DNA from: Amphiscolops sp. MND2022
Taxonomy: Eukaryota
Reading direction: 5' to 3'
Assembly (NCBI GenBank): GCA_964187785.1
Contig: OZ076409.1
Coordinates: forward strand, 6,264,001 to 6,328,000
DNA: 64,000 bases
This document shows positions 15,461 to 56,845 of this stretch, piece by piece. The translations under genes and the position numbers were made by a program. A model generated the notes under the pieces. The model did no database searches and had not been told where the DNA came from. It worked only from the letters and a program-made list of their open reading frames with translations. Numbering within the stretch: the first letter of the stretch is position 1; each line of letters starts with the position of its first letter.

Positions 15461-15626
15461 CAATCTACCGACAACAATGGGACACCCTACAAGACGTTTA
15501 CACTAAACATAAAATTTTCACTGTATACGAAATGTTCATCGTCGAAGTTGTGAAAAGGGTTTTCAAACAGTTACGACTCGAGTCACCCAGGCTATACCTT
15601 GATACAGGTTTAGCCGGTCATGACTA

Positions 15627-18890: not shown

Positions 18891-21588
18891 TTCGGAATGG
18901 TTGTCAGGGAAAAAAAACGACAGAAAATAAAGATTCAAACTGTTTTTAACAGACACTCAAAACAAAACTGAAGTACTTTCACATAATTATGTAAATGATT
19001 CGTTAAAATAAAGGTAACAGGAAGCATATTGCATGTTTTGCCACTTGGTTGGATAAAAATTAGTTTTGAAATTGATGATCTCTTACTATGCCAAACTATA
19101 CTTATCAAACATACTACAGCAACGGCTCCGTAGCAAAACTAATCCAATGTACATATGTTTTTAACTATGTATCAACAAAAGGAGGAACGATTCTAGTTTG
19201 TTGATGAATGTTCTTTTTCAGTTTGATTGGCACTTCATTTTAGTGAACCGAATTTTTTCAGACGCGGTTTTACACCGTATTACATTCCCCTCTCGGGCTC
19301 TTTCCTCAATTTGGAAGTTGCTGGCATCGAGCTCATCAGTCTTTCAAAGTCCAAAGTCATATAGTCGTGGTAAATACTGTCTTGTTATTTCGGTTATGTC
19401 TTGAAACAAAGCATGTATTTGAGTTTGTTACCTTCAAAAGTTTTTGATATACGGCACTCCCCCGTACCTATTCGGCCGTTTACATTCTCGATTTGATCTT
19501 CTAACAAATTGTTTTATTTTGAATTTTATTTTTCACTCTCACCGATAGGTATCTCATCATTAGAATGCAGGGTTTATTCTTCTTCGGGATTTGTGCTGCT
19601 TGGCTTAGACCCGTTCTTTTCGGATGTATCTGGATTTTTCTTTTCGCAATCTTTTCTTCGTCTATTTTGACTTCATCGCTCTGATTGTCCGATTCTGTAT
19701 GATTTTCAGCTTCCCATTCAGTATATCTCGGAGTATCTCATTCCTCAGAATGTAATATCCGTCTTCCCCTTGAAGAAAAAGTGGACTTTTCGGGATGATT
19801 CTGTCTCCGATTTGCGATGCCCGGATTTGTTTTTTTTTCGTTCGGAAATACCATCGGTCCCGAAATTGTTTTCGGTAGTTACGGTATGTTCAGTTTCGCT
19901 GACCGCGGTTTGCAATGTTTTGGAGTTTTCTTTCGGGATATTTTTATCTGATGTTTTTTTTCCACAAATTTCAAAGTATAACCATTAACCGTATTTTTCT
20001 TTTTCGGTTGACTTTTCTGTTTTTCTTCGGCTTGGTTTTTGTTATCACGAGGTAGTTTGTGATGTCTCCGTCTCCGTCCCTTGATACGTAGATGGTCTTT
20101 TTGGCTTTTTCATAGCTGAAACAGACAGTGCGGACCAATCAGAAGGGTACAATTTACCGTCTTTAACCAGATTGAATACTTCGTTTCGTCGTTTTTCACA
20201 GCTATGTAATCCAAAGAATGTTAATTTTAATCCCGTTAAATTGTAAATTCTCTTTACGTTTATTGCTCAATAACCGAATTCGGTCAGGCTTAAGGTATCT
20301 TCTAAATTGGCCATCATCAGGTTCTTCATGTTTTGATTGCCCGTTCTGCTACTCCCAAACCGGTATGCATTCTTGGTGTGCAAAATTCGTTTTCAATTTT
20401 TTTTGACCATCAAAGCTCAATTAGTTCTTTCCAACCAACAATTCAGCCTTTATCCGAACCAAATCTTTCCGGTGTGCTGTATAATATTGTGCATAAGGTA
20501 AATTAGCACGTTCTTCGTCTCGTATATTTTACAAAATTCTACGGTTGGCTTTTTGCTAAATGTATCTTTCGCTAATAGTAATCAGCTTTCTCCATTGAGT
20601 TTTCAGATGTGTACTTTGTCTGTGAAATCAAATTGAATTTTTTGTTGCGGTTCGATAATTGTTTCAACTCTTCCGCTTTCGGCATTTGATACTTGAAGTT
20701 CTTACAGGACGCTAAGCAGGCTTTGCATTTTTTGACTTTATCTTTTATGTATTTGCTGATGTTTGGCCCCTGGAAAAGTTTTATCTCGGCAGCCATCTTG
20801 GTGGATCCGCAAGACCAATGTGTAGAGAGTGCAATAGTTTCTTCCGAAGTTCGGTCGGAACTACAATTTTGTCCTCATTTCATTGACAGTTTTTCGAAAT
20901 GTTGTCTCATTACAGTGGGGTAACCGGCAAGGCCTTCCAAAACTCGGAAAATGTTGGGCAAAAACTCGGGAATGCATGGGCGAGTTTTGTTGTTCATAAC
21001 TGAAAATCTCGGAAACGCATGGGCGAAGTCAACTAATTGTTGAACATAATCTGTCCATTCGTTTCCCACCAAGTGTGGCCTTTCAATTTGATAGAAACTT
21101 TGAATACATATCAAAAAATGTCCGAGATATACCTAATCAACTAAAGATAAGGATTTGCCGATTATCAGAATTTTAGTAAACCCTTCCCAGGTACTTTTTT
21201 TCGAAATAAATTTGAATAATGATTATCAAGCTTTCATGCTTCTCATCATTCCACCTTAAATCGAACAACTCTCATTTAATATAATTGAATAAGCTTAAAC
21301 TCATACTATATATCAATCAATAGGAAGATTAGGAGATTACAAGAAGATTAGATTGGTATCATAAGATCTTTCCGGGGGCTTGTCTTTTTGAACAATTTAA
21401 TCCTCATTACTTTTTGTTTGACTCAATTGTTTAATGTTATTGTTGTCAATTATTACAATGTCGCTCCACTACTGTTCTTTTGCCCCAAATCGAAAACAAA
21501 ATGATTCACAAGAGACTGATTCAATTAAGAAACATAATGGAAAAGATATCACAATTGTTATGGCAATGGATACAAAAAATGAATAAAT

Positions 21589-23156
21589 TTAAAAACTAAA
21601 CTGACTTCTGCAATTATTGGCTGCGGAACGACGATATTCGTCATCGCCATTTAAATTGTCCTGGAAACAATCGATAGATACTCGCACAGTTTTCAGCAGA
21701 AAATCGTTGTTAATTGAAAATTTTAGGCTTTTGATAATGTGGCAGAAAGTTTTAGGGAAGATTGGTGGGAGCATATCCCATTGTCGGCCTAGGGTACTGT
21801 CCCATTCTGCATTTTTGTGGAACTTTTCTGAGTCAGGATCTATATGAAATTTGACTTGGTGTCCAGAACCCATTAAAAAGATATTCTTGGAAATTTCGTC
21901 AACCAAGCAAATGTCCTGATTCATCATTGTGCGTTTGGACTGGGATATCCCGACCAAACGTTTCAGCGCTGACAGGTAATGAAAAGCTCTATTCACAGGT
22001 GAACAAGCTGCGGACAAGTCCAGAGCTTTCTGCTTCATGTAGTTTGCTTCTGTCAACACTAGCTTTACAGCTGGGTAAGTGATGGAGTAGCATCTGTCTT
22101 CTTCATCGACCAGTTTCGCCATGGCCTTCTTCATCTCCACGTCGAACCATATCTTCTCCAATTTCATCGTGAAGACCGTGCTCCTAATGTTTATCGTAAC
22201 GTGGTCACCTGATAACAGAATGCGAATATTCAGTTTCATTTAGTAATAATAATTTATTAACCACTTGAGAAAGATTTATGCGACAAAGTTTCTATAAGCA
22301 TGTAAATTTTTCGAGAGGACGCTCGTGGCAAAAAACTTGGTTTCAGTTTTTTTGTTTGATTTTTTTAGTACCGTAGAAGTTAGACTAGTAATAATCAAAT
22401 TGATCATTTACCTGCTGATGCAATACCATTTTCGCAGGGTACAATGTCCAGAAGTTCGTCTTTCTCGGCAAGACTCGCAATATATGCGGCAATATCAATT
22501 TTCTGTCTGGGAGTGGTTATAGTGGGTTCTGGTTCTGCATCTGTTTCTACTACTCTCTTTTTTTGCCGCGATGGTTGGACATCTTCGGGCTCCGAATCAA
22601 ACTCTGAAGGCTGCCTCGTGTCAGGATGAGTCCAGTTCTTCGGACGAATTTGTTCATAGTCGATGAACTGGATGTCCTTTGTGCGCCCGTCGAAGGAAAC
22701 AGCCATATTTTGCTGGAATGGGTCATTCATGACAACATAACCCGAGTTCAGCAGCTTCGACTCCTCGGCATCTTTTCTAACCTCTTCCAAACTAGGAATG
22801 TCCGCTGGTGATTTCCGTGATGTCCCAGTGAAAAAGATTCTGTCCCCTAGTTGGCGCTTTCTTGGGTCGGGGATGTCAAAAACGGTTTCTGCTGGCTTCT
22901 TGGATTTCCGGCGACCGCGGACATCTTGTAATACTATACATTTTCTAACCGGCCAGCAATTTTGGGGTGTGTTGGGGGACACTTCAATTCTGTCTGATCC
23001 GAATCGCTTCACAAGTTTATCGGGCCAATTGAGGTATTTCACTCGGATTCCAAATGATCCTTCAAACCCAATGATGCGAGCATCTTCCCAAATTTTTGTT
23101 GCAGGATCCAAAACTTGAACTTGCTCTTTCATATCAAAAACACTGATGAAATCCAT
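21589..23156 (-). CDS. Tudor/chromo-barrel-like protein; join complement(22412..23156,21589..22208), ~454 aa
   Basis: In-frame phase-1 intron (GCAG|gtaaat ... ttatcag|GT). N-terminus FDMKEQVQVLD...WEDARII...IRVKYLNW fits the PHF20-Tudor/MRG15 chromo-barrel pattern; possible second barrel (LGDRIFF...GYVV...MAVSFDG...FIDYEQIRP). C-terminal exon not recognised. Confidence 0.6.
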
Positions 23157-23431
23157 TTCAATTAATGAAATTAGTGCTTTATTTTTCAAGAAATTTAATT
23201 TCGTAAACGAGTATTTTCAGTATTGCATTTGCCACTAATGTTTATCAAGCAAGTTTGAGCAAATAAAATCGTTATCGGGACAAATGATTATCAAGTGAGT
23301 TTGATCGACTCAAATCGTTACATACGCATAAGATGAATTTTAAATGTCAGACGCATATTAATTAATTGTCAGACGCATTTTAAATGACAATAAACCCCCA
23401 GACACTTTTGCACGGAACATCCAAAACGTAG

Positions 23432-23760
23432 CACGATAAATTTATAATTTTTTGTCAAACGCTTTTCGATCAAGCAGACGCATTTCAAAATCCACGTGAG
23501 TGTGAGCACGCTAAAACTACAATTACTCGATTTATTTCCGATATAATCAATAACATCAATAACGTAATACGATAATTTTATAATATTTTGTCAAACGCTT
23601 TTCGATCAAGCAGACGCATTTCAAAATCCACGTGAGTGTGAACACGCTAAAACTACAATTACTCGATTTATTTCCGATATAATCAATAACATCAATAACG
23701 TAATACGATAATTTTATAATTTTTTGTCAAACGCTTTGCGAACCAGCAGACGCATTTCAA
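23432..23760. repeat. ~137-bp tandem repeat (about 2.4 copies) in the divergent promoter
   Basis: ACGATAA..TTTTGTCAAACGCTTT..GCAGACGCATTTCAA unit starts at ~23432, ~23569 and ~23705. Confidence 0.85.
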
Positions 23761-23865
23761 GAATGGAAACGCTAGTGTGGAAACGATAAAGTGTCAATAC
23801 GCTTTTGAAAAAACAACAACTACTAGAATAACTTCCAATATAACTTTCGACGTACGACAATCAGG

Positions 23866-26800
23866 ATGACAATACACCCCGAGAAGCTTCTGCACGATTA
23901 CACTGAAACAATTGATGGAAAAAGTTTTGTGGATGCTAAAATTTTGGATGTTTTTGCTGGGCATATTATAAGAGAAAAATCTCGAAAACTGAAAAGCGCG
24001 ATCGAAATAGTAATTGAAGGAACTGAATTAAAACTCGAAGATTGTGTAAAAAACAAAAAAAAACTTGCTTTGTTGCAATTGGAATATTGCAAATAATAAT
24101 TGTTCGTGGTTTACAAAGTGGGTTTCCATGGACACAATTACGAAGAAGATACGTGTCCTATTTTTTCCCAAATACGCCGCAGCTAATTCCCGACTCACAA
24201 CCTTTTGTCAATCCACTTCCAATGCCAACAATCCCAGTGGAGCAGTTTTCTAAACCTGAATCAGGTTTCAGTCAGAAGATGCATACAATTCTCGCAACAT
24301 TAGCAGCTACAGAACAAAAGCGGATTCATACTAAGGCCCAGAAGACCTCTCTGCATCAATTTGAAGCCAAGGCTCTGGTTAAGGGTGTTTTTTCAAACTA
24401 TTTATCGTACGAAAAGCTGAAGTCAGACATATTTATCTGTACTAAAACTGGTAGTTGGATAAATATGATCAACACGCTGAAAAAAACTTTCCATGTCGAT
24501 GGACTGGGTCAAAAACAACTAATTCCTGGTTATACGGCGATCAAAGAGATGTCAAAACCGATGATTTCAAAGTTTATATCCCTATTCAAACCAAAAAACA
24601 CTTTCTCGGGATTCAGAATTGATCTTGTACGTGCTATCAAAGTCATGACATTCATTCTGTTCAAAGGAAGAACTGATTTGCAAGGTCTGAAAGTTGATAT
24701 TTGGGGAGATGGTGTTCAAATAGGGAAAAAGGATCAAACTCGAATGGCCTTCCGTTTTCTCGAAGGAACATCTATCAGCAATCAGTCATCAGATGCACTC
24801 TTCTCTTTTGCTGTTTTCCAAGGTATGTTCTGCTATTTTGTCCTGCTGAATCTTTAAATATAATTTAGCTCTAGGTTAGCTTCGCACACTTTACAATACG
24901 TGTTTACAGGTCACGACGGTCGTTGGTTGCTAGAGCAAAATGTCGGGTACCTGGAACTAGGTGAGCAAGATTCCTCTTGGCTTTACCAGCAGACGAAACA
25001 ACTCCATGACGCCGGAGTCCTTTTAACATACAGTGGAGATCAACCATTCCTAAATCGCCTTCTCATTGGAACCTCTGTTGATCACATGGAGAGTGAAGAA
25101 AATCCATCAAAATTGCAGATGTATCTTGGGAATGACGATTCAGTTAAACCAGAAACCGTGCACGAAAAAAGTGGACATCGAGGTGATGTTCGCCTACCAT
25201 TTCGAACCACCATTCCTCATGAAAGTTTGACGTTTTTGCCAGACATCAGATGCGTTTGTCCCGACGGCACTCATGCAATAACAAGGTGTGTCGAGGGAGA
25301 CATTAGAAAGTTCATGGAGTTGAAAATTCTCCAATCTGAAGATGACTCAGCTACAGTTGATTATATTAGGGAAAATTTTCAGCGCAATTTGACCGAGAGA
25401 GGTTGGAAAGAGCCTGGCTTCGAATTTGACATTGACAAACGCAACAAAAAATGTGCTCCCATTTCCCTTAGTGGCAGAGAAGCTATCACTGGCATTGCTG
25501 ATATGTACGAACTTGCTGAGGCTGGTGTTCAGCATGAACTGTTCGAAGGAGTTTTTTCCGAGAACAAGACTGTTGGAGCCTTGTCGGGTACAAAAAGTGC
25601 AAGCATGAATGTGTTGAAAAATCTTCATCCCAATTCATTCGAAAATATCGAAAGCCCATGTCAAATGAAACTTTTGGTTGCAGCTGAACTCTGGAGAAAG
25701 TCACTAAATCAGCTTACCGTGCTGATGAGGACGAGGAAGAAATTCGAAGAACAGGACTTTTCCGACTATAAATACTGGTCAGAAATCCACTATCACATTT
25801 CGATTGTACTGTTCGATGTAAAACTAGGTTTGACACCGTACAGACTGAAACTGTGCCTGATTCCCCAGCTGTTAGAAGGAGGCTACATTGAATCACCCTT
25901 TAACCACCTGTGCGAAGGCCCCGAAAAATCAAATCATCATGTCCATAGAGACTTTCAGCAAAAGACCATGCGAGGGGGAGGGACAGTTCGACACGCCGAC
26001 CCCATGTTTCTCGAAATGTTTTTCACTTTCTGTTCTGGTCTCCGGTTTTCGACTTTGGAAGGCACAATCGACGAACAGCTCTCACTTTGCCATCAACGGC
26101 TTTTCAATGAACCCATAGAGGTGAACCTATCTTTTTTAGACTCCCTGGGACCAACTGAGAAAGCCATCATTCCCGTTGGAAAAGTTCGAGAGAAGTCCCG
26201 CCTTTTCTTGGGTAAGGATTTTTTTTGTACCTATATGCCCACGTCCAACTTTTTTAGTTATGAAACCTAAGTGGTATAAATTTAGCGAAATTTAGTTGGA
26301 TAAACCAACAATATAGTGTGAATTTTGCTTTTCTTGCGACTCCGAAATAAATGTAGTGGATCGTTGAACAAATGTTTGACTTGAGTTTTGCTGAATATTT
26401 GTATTGCACCGCAACACGTTGACAAATATTAGTCCTAAGTTACTCGGATGAAATACTTCCTCAAAACAGCAACAGATTCCAAGTACCACTGGCGTAGTGG
26501 TTACTTCGTGCGACGTTCCGTCGTTCCGCCGCTCGTTCGCTCTTGGTATACAGGTTCGCTTCTCTGCGCCGCTGTTGGTGCAGCCTTCGGTAACCAGTGG
26601 CTGGTATTGTGTCTGGTATTGTGTGTGGTAGCCATTGGCTGGTATTACTTGCCATAGATGTCGATTGCCGGTGACGACCGCGCATTCAACAACTGTGGCA
26701 ATTAGTGAGTAGATTGAGATTGGAATTCTCTCTGGCGGAAAGAGAAATCCAATCTCAATCTACTTATTTTTATGTTTTCAACTTATTATTTGCAATTAGT

Positions 26801-27833
26801 TCTTCGCTTAACAGTGAGTTTTGAATGATGCAATTACATACCTGTTCAGAACGATCGTAGCAAAGAAAATAGAATACAGTAGTGATATTATTAAAAGCAA
26901 CAAAAGGCAAATTTTAGAATCAAATATCTATCAAAAAGCATTTGACTGAAGGACTTGATATGTTTTGATTGAGAAATTATATTAAAGTCTCAATGAAACC
27001 ACGCTGTAAAAATAGGCGTTTTCGAAAATACTAAGTTTTTAATAATCTCACTACTGTACATGCAAAACCGTCTTAGAATTATACGGCAATAAGCACGTTC
27101 GGCAATGGAAGGACCACCTTAGAAACCTGTTGTTACATATTCGAAGTTCGGTATATAACCAATTGTTTTCACAGAACTAAACAATATTCCGTTTGCTCCA
27201 GGATCGAGATTCTTTCTGCACGGGAAATTCAATAAAGAGCAACGAATTCAACATGAAAACCAAGATGGAAAAACTCTTGGACCCGCTGAGTGTCTCAAAA
27301 AAGTTATCAAAAAAGCGGGAGGGAAAGTTCTAGAACGAGCAGCATTGAATACTCTCCTCTCCAGACACTCCAAGTTGCCACACATTTACGTGGTTCTCCA
27401 AAATGACACAGATCTTATTAGTGCAACAACGTCGTGTGATTCTTTGCCACAAGTGACAGAATTTATGGCCAAAGGAAAATGCAAAAAAAGGAAACTAAAT
27501 GAACCAAGTCGAACCAGTTACGTTTTACGACACTTGGCCAGTCGTGGACTTACGTTTCTATCCGTTGACTATATTTTGAAAAGTATCGAAACTTCAACAA
27601 TTTTGGATGTGGAGTCTTTTGCGTTCAAACCAGGGCCAGACATCCCATCAACTTCTGTTCGTGATCATCGCAAAATTTTCCTTCTTCAGAGGAATCCCGA
27701 ACTACAAAACACAACTTCAGCTATAACATCGGTACTTCGTAAACGACGAGAAATGCTGAAGAAGCGCGAACAAGAAAAAATGAATGACGCTCAGAAAGAA
27801 CACGATGAATCATCCTCAGACTCATCAGACTGA
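23866..27833 (+). CDS. RAG1/Transib/Chapaev-like DDE transposase with C-terminal BRCT-like domain; 23866..~24054, -1 frameshift, ..24822, 24910..26211, 27202..27833 (~960 aa)
   Basis: In-frame GT-AG introns 24823-24909 and 26212-27201. Ordered motifs KVDIWGDG, NQS..ALFSFAVFQGHD, YSGDQPFL, CPDGTHAITR, TPY, EGPEKSNH parallel the RAG1-core SCDG / YDEK / DALH / TNY / EGNESGNK blocks. Exon 2/3 junction LFLGSRFFLHG...LKKVIKKAGGKV...YVV...LSVDYILKSI fits BRCT. Confidence 0.72.
26877..27056. mobile_element. MITE in transposase intron 2
   Basis: TA|CAGTAGTGATATTATT ... AATAATCTCACTACTG|TA. Confidence 0.75.
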
Positions 27834-28235
27834 GAATCATTTGATAATCATAATTGATAAATCGTGAAAACTTTGATTCGAACAATAATAAATTATTTTT
27901 ACCTGTTTTTATTGTCAAAATTTAATTGAATCATTCGAATTGTTTTAAACAAATTCAAAATAGAAACGTACCAAAAAGTAGCAGCGCAAAATACTAAGTA
28001 AAAACCGAAAAGAAAGAATAAAACCAAATCTTTCAAAGACCAAGAACTGGAATTCAAAATTCTAAAGTATTACTACAGTAAACTGCGAAATTGCATCAAG
28101 TGCTGAAATACTTCGCTGAAAACAAGTTTCGAGATTTAATAATAATATATATCAATACAATGAAATAAAATAATAAAGGTTAAGAATATGTAAAACAAAA
28201 AAATTTTATCTCGAAAATGGTTTTCAACGAACTAA

Positions 28236-31200
28236 TCAATCAAGAGACCAAAAAGTGTTTCGACCGAGTTTTTTGTCAACAATTTGAAATAGGTGAGTTA
28301 ATGATATGTTCCTGTTTGGGAAATTGAGAGACATGTACCGGTTGATAGTTTGCACAAATTTTCGTCGATTGCTCTTGGATCGGCTGTCATTTTTGGAATT
28401 GAAGCTGAGGACATGTAGTGCTTTGGCCAGAAGCTCCCATTTCATTAGCCTACAGTTCCCAATGGCACTCTCTAGAATAACTTTCGTCATTAACGATAAG
28501 AAATGTGGGAAACATTTCTCAAGAGGTTCATCATTGTCCCGTTCCCTCTGGTAAACAGTCAAAGTCGTGTCTAAAAACATATATGCACAAGCATTAGTAA
28601 AACTGCCTCGAACCCATAGAAGAAGTAAAACCCGAATTTTTTTGAGAAATTAACTTAATCCGATTTTAATTTTAAAAATGAAGATTTTTTCGATTTTTTT
28701 GCTTTTTACCTTTTATCTCTTCTAACAAACAACTGAGAAACAATTATATGAAAACTGAATTTCAAAATTACCTAGATCACAGATGGTGAGAAAATTGAAT
28801 CCCACGGCCACGCTGTCCGCACAGGTTCTGACCATATGTATCATGCCTGCTGGCATGATCATTGACTCGCCGCCTGTTATCGTCACTTTAAACACTTGAC
28901 TTTGGAGGTGGGTGTCACTTGGTAGGAAAACATTTTGTTTTGTTGCCTCAATGCACCAATTCTCGAGAATTTCTTGGTTTCGAACTGTTCCAGGAATCAT
29001 GAAAAACTCTTTTTTACCGTGAAGAAGATGGTAAAAGACGCTGGTATTCGTGTAGTCAACATGCCAAGGTGTAATGGAACCTTTTTGACTGAGAAGAATA
29101 TAGCAATTTTGCTCCAGCTCAAAATTGAATAAATGAGACACTGAAAGTTCTTTAACTGCCGTTGGTACATCGAAATGCAAGTTCTTTGTGAGACTGGAGC
29201 TAAGATCAAGGACATTCATTGGGCCGCTCATAGCTCCAAACTCAATGGCATTTACAAAATCTTTTCCTGAGAGTGTCAAACACAGGAGTTTTTGCAGCTG
29301 AAATAGACATGTGTTGTATATGAAAAAAGAATACACTTCGAAGATCTACAATTTTGGTTTTAAAATATAAAAACCCTAATATTTTTTAAATGTTCGGTTT
29401 TCATTGGTGAAGTTAAAAAGACGAAGCCAAAAACGAACACTGACAGGTTTGTACATTCGGACAGATAATTGTACATCTTCTGCGTGTAGACAGTCTTCGA
29501 AGATGTTTCTTCGCGCTCCAAAGTTGATGTTGGGCAATTTCATACCATCCATATGTCCTCGAACAATACAGGCTCTTTTCCGCTGCAGCTCCTCCTCTAT
29601 TTCGCTGCTGGTAACATTGGTGCAGCAAACTCGCATCTCGGACCCGGAAGATTCTCTGATTACATCCAGCAGCTCATGATGCTCTGCTTCATCCACAAAT
29701 GCAACCAGAGAAACTTCTTCATCTTCTGCTTGAACCTGTTCGTAGCTGTTGGAATCTGAAACGAAAATTGTCAATATCATAATAAAGTTTTTTAAATGAT
29801 TGGTAGATGTTTTTCGAATACTTTTGATGAGTATCAGTGGATTCGTTTGGCAAGTAGTAAAATTGGTATGTAGAAATTTTGATATAGGTAAAACAATAGG
29901 ATTTTATTGTACCTTGGGGATTGTGTGTGGCTACTTCTTCACTTTCGTCTTCCTCACGGTTCTCTTCCTGGAGGGATTCTTCATTGCTGTCAGAATCTGA
30001 AACAAACATCGTCAAAATCAATTTAACGTTATTGAGATGATTGGTTGTTTGTCGAATATTTTCGATACGTAATATTGATATAGGTAAACAAGTCGAAGTC
30101 GTGTCTAAAAACACATATGCACAAGTATTAGTAAAACTGCCTTGAACACATGGATGGAACAAAATCCGATTTTTTTAAAAATTAACTCAATCCGATTTTA
30201 ATTTTAAAAGTAAAGATTTTTTGATTTTTTTTGCTTTTTACCTTTCATCTCTTTTAACAAATAACTGAGAAACAATATTTTATGAAAACTGAATTTTATT
30301 GTACCTTGGCGAACGTGTGTGGCTACTTCTTCTTCACTTTCGTCTTCCTCACAGGTCTCTTCCTGAAGGGCTTCATTGCTGTCGGAATCTGAAACAAAAA
30401 TCGTCAAAATCATTATAAAATTATTGAGATTTGTGGATGTTTTTCGAATATTCTCGATAAGTATCAGTGGAATCGTTTGACAAGTAGGCAAATTGGTGTA
30501 GAAAAATTGATATAAGTAAAACGATAGGATTTTATTGTACCTTGGCGAACGTGTGTGGCTACTTCTTCTTCACTTTCGTCTTCCTCACAGGTCTCTTCCT
30601 GGAGGGCTTCTTCATCGTTGTCAGAATCTGAAACAAAAATCGTCAAAATCATAATAAAGTTAGAGAAGATTGGATGTTTTTCGGATATTTTCGATAAGTA
30701 TCAGTGGAATCGTTTGACAAGTAGTCAAATTGGTGTAGAAAAAATGATATAGGTAAAACAATAGGATTTTATTGTACCTTGGCGAACGTGTGTGGCTACT
30801 TCTTTTTCACTTTCGTCTTCCTCACAGATCTCTTCCTGGAGGGCTTCTTCATCGTTGTCAGAATCTGAAACAAAAGTCGTCAAAATCATAATAAAGTTAG
30901 AGAAGATTGGATGTTTTTCGGATATTTTCGATAAGTATCAGTGGAATCGTTTGACAAGTAGTCAAATTGGTGTAGAAAAAATGATATAGGTAAAACAATA
31001 GGATTTTATTGTACCTTGGCGAACGTGTGTGGCTACTTTTTCACTTTCATCTTCTTGACGGTTCTCTTCTTGGAGGGCTTCATTGCTGTCGGAATCTGAA
31101 ACAAAAATCGTCAAAATCATAATAAAGTTAGAGAAGATTGGATGTTTTTCGGATATTTTCGATAAGTATCAGTGGAATCGTTTGACAAGTAGTCAAATTG

Positions 31201-33847
31201 GTGTAGAAAAATTGATATAGGTAAAACAATAGGATTTTATTGTACCTTGGCGAACGTGTGTGGCTACTTTTTCACTTTCATCTTCTTGACGGTTCTCTTC
31301 TTGGAGAGCTTCATTGCTGTCGGAATCTGAAACAAAAATCGTCAAAATCATTATAATGTTAGAGAAGATTGGATGTTTTTCGGATATTTTCGATAAGTAT
31401 CAGTGGAATCGTTTGACAAGTAGTTCACAAATTGGTGTAGAAAAATTGATATAGGAAAAACAATAGGATTTTATTATACCTTGGCGAACGTGTGTGGCTA
31501 CTTTTTCACTTGCATCTTCTTGACGGTTCTCTTCTTGGAGGGCTTCTCCATTGCTGTCAGAATCTGAAACAAAAATCGTCAAAATCATTATAAAGTTATT
31601 GAGAAGATTGGATGTTTTTCGGATATTTTCGATAAGTATCAGTGGAATCGTTTGACAAGTAGTTCACAAATTGGTGTAGAAAAATTGATATAGGAAAAAC
31701 AATAGGATTTTATTGTACCTTGGCGAACGTGTGTGGCTACTTTTTCACTTTCATCTTCTTGACGGTTCTCTTCTTGGAGAGCTTCATTGCTGTCGGAATC
31801 TGAAACAAAAATCGTCAAAATCATTATAATGTTAGAGAAGATTGGATGTTTTTCGGATATTTTCGATAAGTATCAGTGGAATCGTTTGACAAGTAGTTCA
31901 CAAATTGGTGTAGAAAAATTGATATAGGAAAAACAATAGGATTTTATTATACCTTGGCGAACGTGTGTGGCTACTTTTTCACTTGCATCTTCTTGACGGT
32001 TCTCTTCTTGGAGGGCTTCTCCATTGCTGTCGGAATCTGAAACAAAAATCGTCAAAATCATTATAAAATTATTGAGAAGATTTGTGGATGTTTTTCGAAT
32101 ATTTTCGATAAGTATCAGTGAAATCGTTTGGCAAGTAGTCAAACTGGTATGTCGAAAAATTGATATAAGTAAAACGATAGGATTTTATTGTACCTTGGCG
32201 AACGTGTGTGGCTACTTCTTCTTCACTTTCGTCTTCTTGACGGTTCTCTTCTTGGGGAAAGTGTGTGACTACTTCTTCTTCACTTTCGTCTTCCTCATAG
32301 GTCTCCTCCTGGAGGGCTTCATTGCTGTCGGAATCTGAAACAAAAATCGTCAAAATCATCATAAAGTTATTGAGAAGATTTGTGGATGTTTTTCGAATAT
32401 TTTCGATAAGTATCAGTGGAATCGTTTGGCAATTAGTCAAACTGGTATGTCGAAAAATTGATATGAGTAAAACGATAGGATTTTATTGTACCTTGGCGAA
32501 CGTGTGTGGCTACTTCTTCTTCACTTTCGTCTTCTTGACGGTTCTCTTCTTGGGGAAAGTGTGTGACTACTTCTTCTTCACTTTCGTCTTCCTCATAGGT
32601 CTCCTCCTGGAGGGCTTCATTGCTGTCGGAATCTGAAACAAAAATCGTCAAAATCATTAAAAAGTTATTGAGAAGATTTGTGGATGTTTTTCGAATATTT
32701 TCGATAAGTATCAGTGGAATCGTTTGGCAAGTAGTCAAACTGGTATGTCGAAAAATTGATATGAGTAAAACGATAGGATTTTATTGTACCTTGGCGAACG
32801 TGTGTGGCTACTTCTTCTTCACTTTCGTCTTCTTGACGGTTCTCTTCTTGGGGAAAGTGTGTGACTACTTCTTCTTCACTTTCGTCTTCCTCATAGGTCT
32901 CCTCCTGGAGGGCTTCATTGCTGTCGGAATCTGAAACAAAAATCGTCAAAATCATCATAAAGTTATTGAGAAGATTTGTGGATGTTTTTCGAATATTTTC
33001 GATAAGTATCAGTGGAATCGTTTGGCAAGTAGTCAAACTGGTATGTCGAAAAATTGATATAAGTAAAACGATAGGATTTTATTGTACCTTGGCGAACGTG
33101 TGTGGCTACTTCTTCTTCACTTTCGTCTTCCTCACAGGTCTCTTCCTGGAGGGCTTCTTCATCGCTGTCAGAATCTGGTTCGATGTGAACTCGACGGTAC
33201 CGACGTGACGTCCTTCTCTGTTCTCTTCTTCTTCTCGAATCCATCCTCGCTTGCCATCGTGGGTGTTCGATCTTCTTCTTTGGGGTCCCTTTGATTTTAA
33301 TCAGGTCTTTGATTCGATGGGAATAACCTTTCCCCTCCCGCCGTCTTTTTTCCGACCAGCTGTACTCTCCTGGCACATTGCCTTTGGGCTTTTTTTTAAG
33401 AACAGCGGATTCCCCTTTAAGATAAAACGATTTGTATTTTTGCTTCAGGCAATCGTAAGCAGAACTTTCCTTGCACAATTCCTCGATGTTTTCTGGTGTT
33501 GGTTCCAACAAATTTCCTGGGTACCATTCCTCCCTTTGCAACTCAAACACTTTCAGGGTGCAAGTTCTTCCGAGGGAGTGTTGAGCGGTCCTGTGATAGC
33601 TAAAGAACGGTCCTCCGTCTTTCTCGCCGCATCCACAAAAGCGACAAATAAAATTTGCCCGACTCTAAATTTTTTGTGCAATGCAGGTGAACTCCAGCTG
33701 GTGTTCTTCAACAGGTCTCTTCCTTGGTGCCCAGTCTTTGTACATGTGCCTCTGGCACGCAACTTTTTCGCTGAATTTTCTCCGGCATTCTGAAACACAT
33801 ATTCCGATTAGTATTGGTGAAAAACATGTTTGAAAAAAAATCGACAT
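28236..33847 (-). CDS. Zn-finger + acidic-repeat + JmjC histone demethylase (KDM2/KDM7-PHF8 type). Exons: ~33089-33847 (start uncertain; in-frame TAG at 33665-33667), 12 repeat exons, 29445-~29755, 28772-29297, 28236-28570
   Basis: MNVLDL, CYILLSQKGSITPWHVDYTNTSVFYHLLHGKKEF, GESMIMPAGMIHMVRT..DSVAVGFNFL and the downstream VYQRE....KCFPHF match the KDM2/7 JmjC and JHD helix. Fe ligands HxD...H and 2-OG residues T/Y/K/N are present. Splice phases are consistent. Confidence 0.82.
29755..33180 (-). repeat. Tandem array of intron+exon units (~230-240 bp and 298 bp) encoding DSDSNEALQEE..EEDESEEEVATHVRQ
   Basis: Each unit has a tttgtttcag|AT acceptor and a CAAG|gta(c/t)aat donor; the units I translated are phase 1-1 and frame-preserving. 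12 repeat exons, plus one copy at the end of the large upstream exon. Confidence 0.9.
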
Positions 33848-34404
33848 TTTAAATTCTATTTCAGATATCCGAACAGATCATCAAAATGATAATGCCATTT
33901 AAGACTTGGAAACGCATGGGCAATTTGAAACGCAGAAATACATGGCTTTTTCATTGCTTTTCATCACTCGGAAACGGATGGGCGAAAGTTCAATTCATTT
34001 TATGCCAATTAGCTTACGTTATTTCATACTTCGGTTTTTATCCCCTATTTTGAAACGATAATTGAAGGTTCGCACGTCATCAGGTAATTATCACCACAGT
34101 TGATTTGAAAAGCGTCCTTAAATGAGCTCATCTTCATGCAAATCTAAATAGCACATCCGCAAAGCTATTACCAACGGTATGTACTACTTTTTTCAATAAT
34201 TAAATAATTCATTATCAGAAATGAATAATTATCATATATGTACTATTTAATACGAAGATCACCATTTTTCTTTAATTATAATATACCACAGTTGATTGAC
34301 GAAGCGTCTTTGAATTAGTTCGAATTTGGATCGCTCAAGGAAAGGATTGAGCACTCACCATTCAATCCAAACAGTAGCTAGAAAACAGTCTCTTTTACAT
34401 AACG

Positions 34405-36820
34405 ATGAACCCTCCTCAACATGAGAAATCTCTCTCTTACACTGTCTTGGGGACTAGCCCGGCTGTGACAAATTCTGTTGCTCCAAACGAAACATTTGAA
34501 AGATTTTCGACTCCATTTAAACCGAATGAAAGCAACTTTGCATACTACATGAGTACTCCCTTGGATCAATCTAGTTCGACACAACAGTTGTATGGATCAC
34601 CCAGTGTGTCATCTAAAAGCTGGCCAAGTTTCACCCAAGTTGAACAAAGGATATTTTCACAAATCTCTAATATAGAAGGTGTGAATTATGAAGATAGCCC
34701 TTCGGACGTCTCGATAATGGTACAAGCTCAACTTGCTGCAAATCAAATGACACCTCTGTTAATCAACACTGCAAATCAACTGAACCACACTCCGAATGAC
34801 AGTACGACGAATCAACTGAGCCACACTCCAAGTGACAGTACGACGAATCAACTGAGCCACACACCGAGTGACAGTACGACGAATCAACGGAGCCACACCC
34901 CAAGTGACAGTACGAGCCACACTCCGAGTGACATCATGGCAAGCCAACTGAGCCGTTCTTCAAGTGATATCGCGGCAAGTCAGCTGAGCCAAACTCCGAG
35001 TGATATCATGGCAAGTCAGCTGAGCCGTTCTTGCAACGACACCTTGGCAAACATGGAAAGATGCCAACAGGAGATAGCGAACAAGCGGAAACTTAACCAT
35101 TATGATGAGGAAAACCATGGCCCAAAAAGTAAACGATGTGTTCCCAAAAACTATGAGAAAAATTTGCGAGAAATTACCCCAGTGCACCTAACATTATGCA
35201 CAACTGTTGAAGCGCGACTCTTGTCAGACCTTTATGACATAATGAAGCAATTCAAATTCGCAAAATCTCTAACCAGCATTGACAAAACCAATTTGTTTGG
35301 GGACCTCATTGCTTATTTGCTGGAATTTTCTATTCCAAAGTGTAGAGATCGCAAAATTTTGAGCATTACAACTCATGCCGTTTTACAAATGGTCCCTCAA
35401 ATTCAGCACAATAGAAGTTCTAACTCAAGTGACTTGTTAGTCTTGCAAATTGAAGATGAAGCTGGGTACTTGGACAGCTTCAGAATTCCTCACATTGTTG
35501 GAGAAGCAATGTTAATATATTTTGAAGCTGTACGACCGTACTTCATAAAACCTGAAGGTATCGACCAGAAAAAAAGGTTCATGCAGTCACCCAGTCAAGG
35601 GATACCACCATATTACGTCATGACGGAGCCATTCTTTGTCAACAGCTGGGGAAAAACACAATTCAAAGTGCGGAACATAAGAAATCGGATTGAACAGGTA
35701 ACTAATCAAATACTGTTTGATAAGAATTACTTGACTCAGTTTGATTTGTATTAGTCGATAGTAACCATAAGACATAATCACAAGTTGGAATATCAAAAAC
35801 ATCTTCCTTTTGCAGTTTTCGCTTATTTCAATAACTATCTGCGTGTTCTAGTTTTCCGACTTGACAAGAAACCCAGCCGAACGTGAAATGGACAGATTGG
35901 AAAGAACTGTCAAACTGATGACACTTTCAAAATGTTCAGCAGAAGAAGAATTTTGGTCTGAATCTTACCTGATGATGGAAGTCAAAAAACATTTGAGGCC
36001 CAGCGGACATTACGATGACAGAACGGTCATGAAAGTAGTCGAAAAAAGAATTCAAGCACTTAGGCATCAAAGAGCAGATATTAGGGCGGCCGAATACAAG
36101 AGCCACTACCCTACATCACTAGCTGACCCTGCGAAAGAAAGAGAGAGAATAATCGATTTTGCAAACTTGGTCAACTGGCCCCACTTCACAGATGTAAAGA
36201 GAGTCATGGATGCTTCTTCTAGAATGTCTGGGGTATCAAGATCTCGACAAAGTTCGCGCAAAAAAGCATTCAATCCAAATCTAGAATGGAGACTTTGCAA
36301 TACCCCTTACTTCCAAGATGACTTGAAAGATAGATGCGAAAACCAATTCTGGCCAGGCGTCTGCGATGTTGTCTATCCTACAATGGGTCGAGGAATAATC
36401 GCGACCAAACCATTTAACAAGGATGACGTTATTTTTGACTACCACGGACATGTAGAAGAAAACACGAACAACGTCGACTACTACTGCAGTCTGGACCCAG
36501 AGAACCGCAAGCCAGAATACTGCATCGAGGTTAAAACAAGGCCGGGAAGAATTATTGATGCAACCTCGGAAATATGCCCCATCCACAACGATGGCAGAAG
36601 GTGCCTTGCTCGATTGTGCAATTACTCAAGTACCTTTGATGGTGGAAAGACCAACCCAGCTTGTAACATGAAACTGGTCGAATTGAAATGTACATACTTG
36701 AAAAATAATCCGCGTTACGTGCTACTTATTGCAAAGCGGAAAATTGAACCCCTGGAGCAGCTGATGTTTGATTACATGGACCCCGAAGCCAATAGAATTT
36801 TCGGCGGTAATGCCGAGTAA
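34405..36820 (+). CDS. SETD8/PR-Set7 (KMT5A)-like SET-domain protein; join(34405..35697,35852..36820), ~753 aa
   Basis: Phase-0 intron (GAACAG|gtaact ... ttctag|TTT). C-terminal GRGIIATKPF.KDDVIFDYHG, IDAT, LARLCNYS, LLIAKRKI...EQLMFDY match SETD8 (GRGVIATKQF..GDFVVEYHG...RLINHS...EELLYDY). N-terminal Ser/Thr-rich 12-aa repeats. Confidence 0.85.
34775..35040 (+). repeat. 36-bp coding minisatellite (NQLSHTPSDSTT-like, ~7 copies)
   Basis: Repeated CAACTGAGCCACAC.CC.AGTGAC units inside ORF 34405. Confidence 0.85.
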
Positions 36821-36909
36821 AACCATTGATAAACTCGAACTTTGTTTTTAACTTATCAGTTTTTATATAATTTTTGTTGGAATATTAGTCATTGTCATCT
36901 AGTCAAATA

Positions 36910-37146
36910 CAGTGGTGATATTTTTAAAAGCAACAAAGCCGCTTCAAAGTCTGCGGCAGGTGAAAAAAAAACTTCAAAGTCATCCCAAAACATGTATTTT
37001 CGAAAAAATCTTCAAACAAACATATTTGTAAACTAGATAAAAATCTAGAATACGTTTATTTTTATAAGTTTTCATAAACCACTGCCGTTTTAGAGATATT
37101 CGATTTTGAGATTTGCCTTTTGATGCTCTCAATAATATCACTACTG
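36910..37146. mobile_element. MITE, same family as 26877-27056
   Basis: TA|CAGTGGTGATATT ... TTTGCCTTTTGATGCTCTCAATAATATCACTACTG|TA. Confidence 0.75.
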
Positions 37147-37653
37147 TATATTATCTTCGGGTTTTGTTTTCTTTGTCAATTTTGAATTCAAAATATGCCA
37201 ATGGATATTCCAAAAAGCAGATATCGATTAACACTCTCAAGGAATCATATAAAAGAACTAACTGGGGCAGACGGTCGGATCGTTGAGGAGGCTGATTTGA
37301 TCCCTATCAGTCAAAATGTGCTCCTGGAGAGTGACTTGTTCATCATCGGTCTCAACTTCCTCGTTTCCTGCAGCAACGTAGTCAAACGTGAAACATTCGG
37401 ATTTAGTTTTCCTATTATTCATGTGTTCAAATAGTGGTTGATGAACTGCGGGCATTAGTCAAAACATAGACACATGTAAGATTTCAAAAAGTTCATGTTA
37501 AAAACTAACTCTGACAGACGGTTGGCTCATCTCTGTCAGTCGAAACGCCGCGGTGTTCTTGAAGAACTGCTTCGGTACTGGCTTCTCTATCATGATGAAG
37601 GCTTGGCCTAAATTTGGGCTGAAAAAAACAACAAATTTGCCAAATTTACATTA

Positions 37654-37700
37654 AAGTGGGGTAACCGACAAGGCCTTCCAAAACTCGGGAATCCATGGGC
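37654..37700 (+). repeat. Internal direct copy of the transposon left end
   Basis: catta-AAGTGGGGTAACCGACAAGGCCTTCCAAAACTCGG versus catta-CAGTGGGGTAACCGGCAAGGCCTTCCAAAACTCGG at 20908-20947. Confidence 0.9.
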
Positions 37701-40700
37701 ACGTTTTGATATCCGTAACCGAATTTCTGGCAACCAAATGAGCAAAACTTTTGAGATTAGAATAACAGTGTATTTCTATATAAGCATTATATTTAATTTT
37801 TTTTGACTAAGAAATATCGGTGAATTCCCAAATAACATAAGAGCAAATAACATAAAAACAAAATTAGTTTCAAATAACATTAAAATGAAATGGGTTTCAC
37901 TAAACATAAAAATAAAATTGTTAATGAGAAAATATCAGTGGTCAAAAGCATACACAATTCAAAAGATTCACTGAAAAAAGTGTGGAAATTACAGATAAAA
38001 TTTTCTGAGTTCGATCGTTTTACCGGGTATTCGGTTTTATTTTTATGTTCTTTGACACTAATTTTGTTTTTATGTTATTTGCATTCATTTGTATGTTTAG
38101 TGAAACTCATTTCAATTTTGTGTTTTGAAATTAATTTTATTTTTGTTGTTTGTTCTTATGTTATTTAGGAAATCACCAACGTTTATCAAGAAAAAATATT
38201 GAAAGCAATTATTAAAACCAAAGTATTAAAAAGCCAACCCTGAAAGTTAATAAATCAACTGATTAACTCTAACCTGTTTCAAATGGTCCGGTAAGTCGTC
38301 TAGTTCAATGTCCAGCTTCCGGATCCGTAAAAGTAACGTTTTTAACATGGCAATGACAATTGAAAACAAATGACTAACTTTTACACGCACAGTATCAATA
38401 TGACCTCATCGGAATATGCGATGAAAGAATTTCGTCCAATCAGAAGCGAGTATTCGGTTTCGTTCATCAAGATTACATGTAGTTTGATCAACAGAAAAAC
38501 AAATAAACTTTTGCTCCCGTATTACAACAATCTTACTGATTTACTTGTGCACTTAAATCACTAAAATGGAAGTGAAATTACTTTGAACATTTAGTAACAT
38601 TCCACTTCTTGGAGCGTTGACTTTAACAACTGATAAGAACGTTCACACTTTGAAAAAATGGTGAATATCAGAACAATCATTTGATCAATTCTCAATAAAT
38701 AAATCAATGACGTTTCACAGGATACCAACTCAATTAATAAATATGAAAAAATCAATTGTTTTGTTATGATTGAAAAAACCTAAACTCATTTTATATATCA
38801 ACTATACTGTTCTTTTGCCCAAAACAAAGAATCCTGATTTTTGATGATTAGATTAATTGTCAATAAATAAATCAATGACGATTCACAGGATACCAATTAA
38901 ATTAATAAATATCAAACAACCATATATATCAATCAAGGTGAATAGTTGAATAAAGTTGTTTCTGTAGTAAGTGTACAACTATCAAACAATTTTTTGTTAT
39001 GATTGAAAAAACTTAAACTCGTATTATATATCAACTATACTGTTCTTTTGCCCCAAAACAAAAACGATTCACAGAATACTGATTTAATAAGTTCCAAAAA
39101 AATGAAATACATCAAAATTACATACTAACACATCATAATATACCTACACATCATAATACATCAAAATATTTGTAATTATCATAATTGCCCGATCATAATT
39201 GCCATTATATACAAAAGAAAAGAATAGTTAAGTATTAAACAGTATTAAAATAAAGTAAACTAAAATTTATCACGATAATAATCTTGCAGTGATTGGCCGG
39301 AACGAAAAAAGTATTAGGGTTATATTCCTGCAGATATCGGCTTCGGAACGAAGATTTTCGTCATTGCCAATTTTATTTGTCCCGCCTAAAATACTGGGAA
39401 AATAATAGTTGAGCTGATATTTCTTAGTCAAAAAAAATTAAGAATTTAATTTGATAACTAAATTAATTTTAGCTGAATTAATTTGATAAACCAAAAACTG
39501 AACACTGAAAATCTGCATGTGTAGATAAATATTGAGACACTTCCATGTCAAAGCAGTGTATTGAATTGGCCGAAGCGAGTGGCAGATCTATCTAAATCTT
39601 GAAATTCTTTGAGCAAGCGATGGAATTACTTGCCCAATTTACTCTCATCAACGAGTATGCATGGGCAATTAAAGCCATCGCTCCTGCAAAGAAACTCAAT
39701 ACGTAGCTTGTGCTTCCTCGGAAATCAATAGGCAACAGTTTTGGCTGCGAAACGAATGGGCATTTTTGGCCCATACATTCATTCATGTCCATCATTTTCC
39801 GAGCCGCACAACGAGTAAAATCTGCATTTTCGTTGCCGGTTACCCCACTGTAATGCTGTATGCTCTGCTGCTATGGTGCTGTCTTCTCTATTCAAAGCTT
39901 TTTTCACCCGGATCATTTCGGATTCCAATGTTGATTTCGCTATCTTGCTTTTTAGGTCTAGCATGAAATACGTTTCCGCCATTTTGATTGCCTCTAGGGG
40001 GATTTTTTTTCATTTCGGTGACTGAGTCGAAGATTTGGTTGATTTGCACGAGATAAGTTTTTTCCTTTCTCTTCTTTTTCTGGGTCGTCCATTTGATTTT
40101 CCGGGACTTATTACTCCGGTTGTATTTCTTCCGGTTCGTTTTTAGTTGCTTCAAAAGGCTGATAGCCTCCCCCAGTCGATTGGTGCGCGGCTGAAGCTCT
40201 CAGCCAATTTCAGCATTTTCCTCTCTGCTTCTTATAGTCGGTCGCGACGCGACACATATTATCCTTTGCGCATTTTGGTTGCAGCTTCGTCTCATTGTAC
40301 CGGGTATGTTTATCTCCCATCGTCTTTCCACTAATCTTCCTGTCTCCGGACTCTACTCACGTCGTGGAATATTCTCCTTCGTTTCTGCAAACGCCCCCTG
40401 TGGAAATAATCTCGATCCATTTCTTACCCAAAAGATGATAATGATACCGTTTGACAATTCTGTAATTGTAAGCGTTTTCAGCGTTTTATTTTAAGTGAAC
40501 TGCTAAGTGGACTAGTTTCCGCTTGTTCGTTTATTTTGTTCACGTCTCAGTTTCTCTCGAATCTGCCAGTCTTTTCTGATTGGTTACTTGTTTTGGGTTC
40601 GTTTTTTTTGTTCGTTACGTTCTGATATTAGCTCGTGATATATCGTCCATATTTTAATTACAACTCGGTTTGCTTGGTGGGAAAATTTATCACGTATTGT

Positions 40701-56769: not shown

Positions 56770-56845
56770 TATCTTATCCATTTTCTTGGTTGTGTGTAGT
56801 GTGGTCTGTTGTTAGTCGAGTGTCGCGCGTGTTTGTTTTACATTA

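Follow-up and report, generated by a model that had tools for sequence, protein, structure and literature searches.

A 64,000-nucleotide stretch of the Amphiscolops sp. MND2022 genome (assembly GCA_964187785.1, contig OZ076409.1, positions 6,264,001 to 6,328,000; hereafter the window, whose own numbering is used throughout) contains a giant DNA transposon of 18,948 bp (20908-39855) that is multi-copy and recently mobile. In addition to a transposase gene, this element carries a SET-domain gene, a JmjC-domain gene and a gene for a candidate histone-methyl reader. We propose, with a probability of about 0.6, that it is a cut-and-paste transposon of the kind grouped in the CMCT clade, and that its SET, JmjC and reader genes form a selected module acting on nucleosomes for the element's benefit. 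The three proteins would write, erase and read lysine methylation of nucleosomes at the element's copies or at its sites of transposition. Such a module would keep the element transcribable and transposable (i.e., counter-silencing), mark donor and target chromatin, or do both. The host is an animal, as indicated by the Wnt-family exons in its genome (7 matches, the best at 163 bits, vs none in 14 control genomes).

Termini, copies and insertion sites

The 18-mer CAGTGGGGTAACCGGCAA occurs exactly at 20913-20930 on the plus strand and at 39833-39850 on the minus strand, where dinucleotide shuffles of the window give an expectation of 0. The initial annotation read these sites as 18-bp terminal inverted repeats (TIRs) with a TA duplication, bounding 18.9 kb. 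The exact pair and the size of about 18.9 kb hold up, but the repeat is longer and the duplication is a different one. All three copies of the 18-mer in the window share CATTA on their outward side once aligned, and CATTA adjoins the 18-mer at 26 of the 30 genomic ends that we fetched (the others read TATTA, GATTA, CACTA and unrelated flank, one each). Because CATTA is kept at these 26 ends, we place the terminus 5 bp further out. This gives a 23-bp TIR, CATTACAGTGGGGTAACCGGCAA, at 20908-20930 (+) and as an inverted match at 39833-39855 (-), and an element that begins with CATTA and ends with TAATG.

Outside these ends lies a target-site duplication of 2 bp whose sequence varies from copy to copy. 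It is CT for the window copy (20906-20907 and 39856-39857). Elsewhere in the same family (family A), five other full-length pairs have TT, TA, AC, AT and AA, and a diverged copy has AG; the three sister families described below have AT (family B), AC (family C) and TC (family D). Across families A-D the 2-bp duplication matches in 10 of 11 end pairs evaluated, the sole miss being a 359-bp derivative. One pair of ends 28 kb apart (L021/L022) was dropped from this count, as L021 lacks the CATTA extension. A Tc1/mariner reading, with its TA duplication and CAGTG start, is ruled out: the TA is formed by the last two bases of the TIR, and the real duplications vary.

Next to the left TIR, on its inner side, is a subterminal region (20931-21040, +) with two CTCGGRAAW motifs. 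This motif matches the window 8 times vs 2.6 expected; 8 matches also arose in 2 of 100 shuffles, and the excess is too weak for a claim. At the other end, a non-coding right arm of 3 kb (36821-39832) is filled with many short direct and inverted repeats, including a perfect 26-nt inverted pair (37793-37818 and 39416-39441). The arm also holds the third, imperfect copy of the left end, CATTAAAGTGGGGTAACCGACAA, at 37649-37671, whose 18-mer starts at 37654 (+) and has 2 mismatches. This internal left end and the right TIR enclose 2,207 bp (37649-39855), and the right arm may have originated from a short related element that became nested or fused. An Rfam search of the window gave 0 matches.

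Copies with the same ends and gene order, which the initial annotation had suggested looking for, are dispersed through the genome. With up to 2 mismatches allowed, the 18-mer matches the 1.07-Gb assembly 165 times forward and 155 times reverse, vs 3 and 6 times for a reversed control pattern. The first 100 of these 320 sites include 20 plus/minus end pairs with 16.4-18.9 kb between them. A DNA search with the whole repeat-free left 8.8 kb of the element recovered at least 15 other copies that span it completely (bit scores 15,746-15,798 vs 15,858 for the self match; printed identity 100%); since 16 of 1,399 candidates were scored, this copy number is a lower bound. From the bit-score deficit, we estimate that the young copies are ~99.8-99.9% identical (i.e., that they differ by ~0.1-0.2%). 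Genome-wide protein searches agree, in that each of the four genes is found in tens of near-identical copies with constant spacing. Stop-free copies of the 468-aa transposase exon occur at at least 18 loci (99-100% identity), of the SET exon at 28 (full length, at least 98%), of the JmjC exon at 27 and of the reader exon at 24 (99-100%), all of them at least 98-99% identical. Thus, rather than being single-copy, syntenic host genes, the SET, JmjC and reader-like genes are multi-copy and linked to identical termini at every copy. Mobility is also evident from the 359-bp element at locus L027, which joins the leftmost 131 bp of the full element (97.7% identity) to its rightmost 232 bp (94%) and is a typical deletion derivative mobilised in trans.

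The window copy is flanked (20508-20907 and 39856-40155) by sequence of an older dispersed repeat, which is present in the genome in at least 40 copies of ~70-77% identity. At 6 loci of this older repeat, the two flank homologues are collinear and adjacent, with no 18.9-kb insert. Two of these six junctions were aligned to the flanks, and in both the sequence is continuous across the insertion point. These six loci are paralogous empty sites; no empty site was found within the window itself. The left flank also holds a minus-strand frame (20572-20874) that is Cys-rich and has the look of an integrase zinc finger.

The four genes

The initial annotation described four intron-bearing genes in two divergent pairs, a layout borne out by the reading frames and by homologues in the sister families. 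The reader-like gene (21589-23156, -) and the transposase gene (23867-27833, +) diverge from an intergenic region at 23157-23866, a presumed bidirectional promoter. The JmjC gene (~28236-33664, -) and the SET gene (34405-36820, +) diverge from a second region at 33665-34404, one edge of which is approximate as it depends on the JmjC 5' end. We modelled the genes from stop-to-stop frames and homology to intron-poor relatives, and the splice sites given below are putative. The domain calls of the initial annotation fared unevenly: SET and JmjC are recovered by Pfam, whereas the Tudor and transposase calls are not and are based on predicted folds.

The transposase gene starts with an ATG at 23867 and has putative introns at 24823-24909 and 26212-27174, followed by a last exon (27175-27833) that encodes a BRCT domain (Pfam BRCT_2, 27.6 bits vs a cut-off of 27.3). 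Because the frame containing this domain (27159-27833) is continuous with the transposase open reading frame (ORF) in families B and D (1017 aa in D), we take the BRCT to be a transposase domain and not a fifth gene. No Pfam transposase family matches the window proteins, 15 family members searched at E <= 10, or 25 further members searched at E <= 0.01. Likewise, PDB sequence searches with one transposase and with a 15-sequence profile gave chance-level matches that did not reach RAG1 or Transib. A 15-sequence profile, run against 1.84 billion proteins, found 584 cluster representatives at E <= 1e-3, 396 at 1e-10 and 194 at 1e-30. In a 5.8-billion-protein set the transposase has 25 relatives, all of them unnamed and free of Pfam domains. 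When 25 long or divergent family members were searched, BRCT was the sole domain found, in 8 of them (E <= 0.01). The 15-sequence alignment has the invariant motifs DIWGDG, SGDxPF, CPDxTHxxTRCVExD and HxCEGxEKSNH, which would supply the aspartate pair and the glutamate region expected of a DDE enzyme.

An AlphaFold model of the family-D transposase has a mean predicted local distance difference test (pLDDT) score of 60, with 70-94 over most of residues 270-410 and 470-680. In a Foldseek search of the PDB with this model, all rows down to rank 40 were RAG1, BbRAGL (the amphioxus RAG1-like protein) or Transib (E 1.8e-6 to 1.5e-3), and the next matches were the ISCth4, Hermes and P-element transposases (E >= 0.05). 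VIA-align superposed model residues 221-746 on RAG1 459-1008 with Z 10.5-11.5 over ~400 residues, at a root mean square deviation (rmsd) of ~7 Å. The C-terminal domain superposed on the BRCT domains of MDC1, 53BP1 and BRCA1 with Z 11.8 and an rmsd of 2.0-2.2 Å over 93 residues. Searches of the ESM Atlas with the transposase gave weak matches (0.77-0.82) to RAG1_RNase_H clusters, which we treat as a lead only. The predicted fold of the transposase therefore matches the RAG1/Transib catalytic core. A further gene of this transposase family (41% identical; G000:C6:107311-108621, loci L033/L034) lies ~4 kb beyond the right end of the family-B copy and belongs to another element.

Sixty-five codons into the transposase, an A6-C-A9 run (24050-24065, +) breaks the frame, being 1 nt short relative to an older subfamily copy (C13) in which the frame continues across the site. 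In the window copy and 6 of the 8 other young copies (L049-L056) the second A-run is A9; in the remaining 2 it is A8, and none of these copies is in frame. This break may be a true frameshift, with the recent burst of copies driven in trans, a slippage site, or a homopolymer miscall in the assembly. Miscalling fits, because the length of the run varies among otherwise near-identical copies. The window copy also has an A of its own a few bases upstream of the run; the base there is T in the 8 other young copies sampled and in both older copies.

The SET gene has a putative intron of ~100 nt near 35754-35852, and its SET domain lies within 35852-36820 (Pfam SET, 34.7 bits vs a cut-off of 22.4). 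All 14 PDB sequence matches of this domain are KMT5A/SETD8 (best E 6.3e-5), in agreement with the SETD8-like assignment made at the outset. The motifs GRG, DYHG and FDY are invariant across the four families. The window protein has Phe where wild-type KMT5A has Tyr, as does the best-matching KMT5A chain, which we take to be a Tyr-to-Phe variant; that position presumably influences the number of methyl groups added. The N-terminal region of the protein contains serine/threonine-rich repeats and a conserved domain outside named families. It includes seven units of a 36-nt tandem repeat (34738-35047, +) that encode a serine/threonine-rich repeat of the NQLSHTPSDSTT type, and subfamily copies have 48-84 extra nt somewhere in this N-terminal exon. 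The ESM Atlas returned no usable match for the N-terminal half, and the SET protein has 3 homologues in the 5.8-billion-protein set, none of them named.

The JmjC gene is composed of a 5' exon at ~33664-33088, a catalytic exon within 28722-29345 and a 3' exon within 28236-28649 (Pfam JmjC, 39.2 bits vs a cut-off of 24). Its PDB matches comprise five KDM2A chains (best E 3.4e-18), four PHF8 (2.1e-17), three KDM7 and two PHF2, which bears out the earlier assignment to the KDM2/7 type. The iron ligands HxD...H (WHVD...H) and a Lys aligned with the Lys of KDM2A that binds 2-oxoglutarate (2OG) are kept in all four families. The other frames of the gene have no Pfam match to PHD, CXXC or F-box domains. 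At the 5' end, an in-frame stop (33665-33667, -) separates frames 33665-33877 and 32963-33664, and the downstream one lacks a Met before 33244, yet it has a ratio of nonsynonymous to synonymous divergence (dN/dS) of ~0.2. Further multi-copy frames (~400-640 aa) elsewhere in the genome are 33-42% identical to the JmjC exon (e.g., G000:C12:43890555-43891031, C6:37140177-37140653 and C6:73954561-73954902), and further repeat families apparently carry JmjC-like genes too.

The JmjC gene also contains, upstream of its catalytic exons, a 3.5-kb tandem array of 231-298-bp units (29738-33212, -) whose number differs between copies of the element. Each unit, read on the coding strand, shows an acceptor of the form ...tttcag|AT and a donor of the form CAAG|gta. 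Open putative mini-exons of 81-141 nt, phase 1 at both ends and divisible by three, are present in 10 of 12 units; the donor pattern missed the other 2. The encoded peptide is acidic (DSDSNEALQEE..EDESEEEVATHVRQ), and if the units are spliced as the consensus implies, the product would be a demethylase with a long acidic tail of variable length.

The reader-like gene has an ATG at 23156 and two exons (~23156-22410 and ~22200-21589) separated by a putative intron of ~200 nt; its family-C homologue is a single ORF covering both. The protein matches no Pfam family at E <= 0.1 and no PDB sequence at E <= 1. A structural model of the family-C protein has three Royal-family-like beta-barrels (pLDDT 77-90). 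The best Foldseek matches of this model are the Agenet domains of Arabidopsis AGDP3, the triple Tudor of SETDB1 and the tandem Tudors of 53BP1, UHRF1 and FMRP (E 7.5e-4 to 1e-2, probability 0.9-1.0), with KOW domains of Spt5 interspersed among them. In a search independent of Foldseek (VIA), the third barrel matched a BAH domain (Z 7.2) and the second matched the Tudor domains of Polycomb-like, MTF2 and PHF19 (Z 6.2-6.3). Conserved W/F/Y and NDPF residues are present. We therefore call this protein a candidate Royal-family reader, with moderate confidence based on its predicted fold. The initial annotation's Tudor-like reader is supported to the same moderate degree by resemblance to SETDB1, 53BP1 and UHRF1 Tudors and to Agenet/BAH domains, but not by Pfam. 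A predicted complex of transposase residues 221-975 with reader residues 30-259, both from family D, scored 0.00, a value that decides neither for nor against contact.

Conservation across families and competing explanations

Three sister families in the same genome, each represented by one fetched copy, carry the same set of genes. The copies are 19,369 bp (family B, terminus CATTACAAGACAC...), 16,483 bp (family C, terminus CATTAC[T/A]GTGCC...) and 17,832 bp (family D, terminus CATTACAGTGCATC...). Their termini also begin CATTACA and differ from that of the window family after the first 8 bases. Gene order is as in the window in family B and rearranged in families C and D. The transposases of these families are 37-42% identical to that of the window, and homologues of the reader, JmjC and SET proteins are present in all three at 25-42% identity.

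We compared the window copy with two subfamily copies that are ~94-95% identical to it. Summed dN/dS was 0.41 and 0.31 (synonymous divergence, dS, 0.076-0.077; non-coding divergence 0.05-0.09). By gene, it was ~0.2 for the reader, 0.74 and 0.20 for the SET domain, 0.34-0.77 for the transposase exons and 0.19-0.69 for the JmjC gene depending on the exon (~0.4 for the JmjC exon itself). Indels are few in coding parts and common elsewhere. Because part of the divergence post-dates insertion, these ratios underestimate constraint. The cargo is, on this comparative evidence, an ancestral and selected module of the element's lineage. Its genes appear not to be passengers, because they are kept in four families, dN/dS against the subfamily copies is 0.3-0.4 and coding indels are rare.

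To place the element, we compared it with published systems. The CMCT clade (EnSpm/CACTA, Mirage, Chapaev, Transib, Plavaka and relatives) is united by RAG1 similarity, CA...TG termini and duplications of 2-5 bp (PMC12730594), and an animal CACTA element with 2-bp duplications, ENS1_Cis, is known from Ciona (PMC6004678). Our element shares CACTA-like 5'-CA...TG-3' termini (CATTA, or CACTA in one copy), its 2-bp duplication lies within the clade's range, and its transposase has a predicted DDE fold like that of RAG1/Transib. It differs in having a transposase with a C-terminal BRCT and no Pfam transposase family. We thus describe it as CMCT-like.

Of the systems compared, the giant Plavaka elements of red algae come nearest. 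They are 17.4-19.1 kb long and carry accessory genes PAG1-3; PAG2 combines an N6-adenine methylase with SET, PAG3 combines ParB with a 2OG oxygenase and adjoins tandem repeats, and the third gene is of unknown function (bioRxiv 10.1101/2025.02.11.637652). Similarities extend to size, broad clade, a transposase accompanied by three accessory genes that include SET and 2OG oxygenase, tandem repeats beside the oxygenase gene and a long-conserved cassette. However, the element described here resides in a metazoan, has no N6-adenine methylase or ParB domain by Pfam, and has instead a KDM2/7-type JmjC, repeats that resemble coding mini-exons, a Royal-family third gene and a BRCT-bearing transposase. 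Identity with the red-algal elements was rejected on the basis of the host and of the methylase and ParB domains, which Pfam did not find.

Histone-methyltransferase-type SET genes are also accessory genes of HarbingerS, Phytophthora MuDR and some Helitrons (cited in PMC12730594 and in the Bostrychia preprint), which belong to other transposase superfamilies and non-animal hosts and for which the accessible parts of these sources report no JmjC or reader gene. TET/JBP dioxygenase genes occur in fungal Kyakuja/Dileera/Zisupton, Plavaka, EnSpm, Harbinger, hAT and Helitron elements (PMC12730594). Like our JmjC gene, these are transposon-borne 2OG/Fe dioxygenases able to erase an epigenetic methyl mark, CMCT members included; theirs targets 5-methylcytosine in DNA, whereas ours is of the histone-lysine demethylase type and is accompanied by a writer and a reader. 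VANC, encoded by the VANDAL elements (MuDR) of Arabidopsis, is a sequence-specific DNA-binding anti-silencing protein. It is a model for the counter-silencing reading in being a transposon-encoded factor that alters the epigenetic state of its own copies, although it is a DNA-binding protein of a plant MuDR and not an enzyme set. RAG1-RAG2 pairs a RAG1-type nuclease with a histone-methyl reader (the PHD finger of RAG2), and SETMAR joins SET to a transposase. These combinations of nuclease with methyl reader and of SET with transposase recall the element, but both are domesticated host genes, and the reader of the element would consist of Royal-family barrels and not a PHD finger.

The initial annotation knew of no described animal transposon with such cargo. 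Our literature searches agree for animals, but the red-algal elements are a precedent and SET genes on transposons were already known. These searches, which lay outside Repbase Reports, bioRxiv supplements and subscription journals, found no transposon with both SET and JmjC genes and no BRCT-bearing transposase. The main text of a 2021 survey of DDE transposases does not mention JmjC, BRCT, Tudor or histone.

Several observations weigh against the proposed interpretation. Its placement in the CMCT clade depends on termini, duplication length and predicted fold, because the clade's motifs and a Pfam transposase family are not seen in the window-type transposase. A 15-sequence alignment built without reference CMC sequences has no invariant CxxC or Hx3-4H; where the clade shows C(2)C and H(3-4)H, the element has C-x4-H-x4-C and H-x9-H(H) (conserved CPDxTHxxTRC and DHxCEGxEKSNH(H)). 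A homopolymer interrupts the transposase frame in the window copy, as it does in all 8 of the other young copies sampled. The SET motif NHS, present in families B-D and in the aligned KMT5A chains, reads NYS in the window family, which might make cofactor binding weaker. Support for the reader is moderate, with no Pfam match and every Z below 8, the tool's caution line. Finally, the gene models and the mini-exon array are drawn from splice consensus and homology.

These points leave room for other explanations of the element and of its cargo. The least credible, which we consider next to impossible, is that there is no single element, but an ordinary gene cluster between unrelated short repeats, or a solo end plus the 37649-39855 unit. 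The internal left-end-like copy at 37649 does pair with the right end, but the 18.9-kb unit is found in full, with identical outer ends, at many loci that each have their own 2-bp duplication, and the whole unit is missing from the empty sites. It is very improbable that the SET, JmjC and reader genes are recently captured host passengers without a role. Gene capture by DNA transposons is common, and host genomes encode KMT5A, KDM2/7 and Tudor proteins; against this, all three genes occur in four families whose transposases are 37-42% identical, their catalytic residues are kept although gene order is rearranged, dN/dS is 0.2-0.7 per gene, and the genomic matches listed all fall in multi-copy families. 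More plausible, although the balance tips against it, is that the young window family is now non-autonomous (i.e., that the frameshift is true and an intact relative drove the burst in trans, or that the burst depended on slippage at the A-run). The broken frames in all young copies sampled and the in-frame older copy favour this possibility, as do the intact long transposase ORFs of sister families in the same genome and the trans-mobilisation evident from the 359-bp derivative. However, a run length of 8 or 9 between ~99.8% identical copies is what homopolymer miscalling in the assembly would produce, at least 18 copies keep the remainder of the transposase ORF uninterrupted, and sister-family termini diverge after their first 8 bases.

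Regarding what the module does, we favour action on the element's own chromatin, which matches the role proposed for VANC, for TET/JBP and for the red-algal PAG genes. An unlikely alternative, although one with several points in its favour, is that the module serves the DNA-break side of transposition rather than counter-silencing. Double-strand breaks are what a RAG1-like transposase leaves behind, and the KMT5A-H4K20me-53BP1 pathway (where H4K20me is methylated lysine 20 of histone H4) takes part in repairing breaks. A KMT5A-like SET protein, a 53BP1-like Tudor protein and the BRCT tail would build or read a signal of the H4K20me or phospho-H2AX type that recruits end-joining factors, and the JmjC protein would reset it. 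Consistent with this, the nearest solved relatives of the SET domain are solely KMT5A/SETD8, the 53BP1 tandem Tudor is among the best reader matches (Foldseek probability 1.00, E 2e-3), and the transposase BRCT superposes on those of MDC1, 53BP1 and BRCA1 (Z 11.8) and recurs in 8 of 25 divergent members. In addition, the SET domain of SETMAR/Metnase has been linked to end joining (PMC2847698). On the other hand, the reader fold matches equally well to domains that recognise silencing marks (SETDB1, Agenet and BAH), and KDM2/7 enzymes have several substrates. A more speculative idea, to which we give little credence, is that the Royal-family protein is a RAG2-like cofactor that couples binding or cleavage by the transposase to a histone-methyl mark written by SET and erased by JmjC, with the BRCT tying the transposase to phosphorylated break chromatin.

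Surrounding sequence and implications

The rest of the window contains other repeats and frames. Just left of the element, direct repeats at 15464-16662 and 17676-20316 (85-92% identity, spaced 2.2-3.7 kb) form a local tandem or nested structure. To its right, the direct segments 50181-52534 and 58148-60494 are 93-97% identical and ~7.96 kb apart; they are probably a duplicated retroelement-like unit, and a 415-aa frame at 57723-58970 (-) contains a CCHC zinc knuckle. A short dispersed repeat (CCCCCTTTGA...TTTCGGCACTGTG...) occurs at least 7 times in both orientations (2677-2988, 6753-6832, 9047-9260, 11111-11417, 13595-13921, 43625-44331 and 56433-56775) and is likely a family of miniature inverted-repeat transposable elements (MITE) or short interspersed nuclear elements (SINE). 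An exon-like frame at 10149-10658 (+) matches Peptidase_M28 with 43.7 bits and is probably part of a host gene.

Transposons that carry epigenetic enzymes are rare. They have been reported, in the accessible parts of the sources cited above, from fungi, oomycetes, plants and red algae, and no animal case emerged from our searches. The metazoan genome studied here harbours at least four families of cut-and-paste elements 16-19 kb long, and every family keeps a histone methyltransferase, a histone demethylase and a reader-like gene beside a RAG1-like transposase with a BRCT tail. The unannotated transposase family to which they belong, with its 584 cluster representatives, fills a gap in transposon classification. 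These elements raise the questions of whether a transposon can rewrite its own silencing chromatin, of whether a RAG1-type nuclease is coupled to histone marks outside immunity, and of how a cargo of ~12 kb is moved. If the Royal-family protein were indeed a RAG2-like cofactor, the element would be a mobile and complete writer-eraser-reader-nuclease circuit in an animal, and it would offer an independent parallel to, or an insight into, the way in which RAG1 became dependent on a histone-reading partner.

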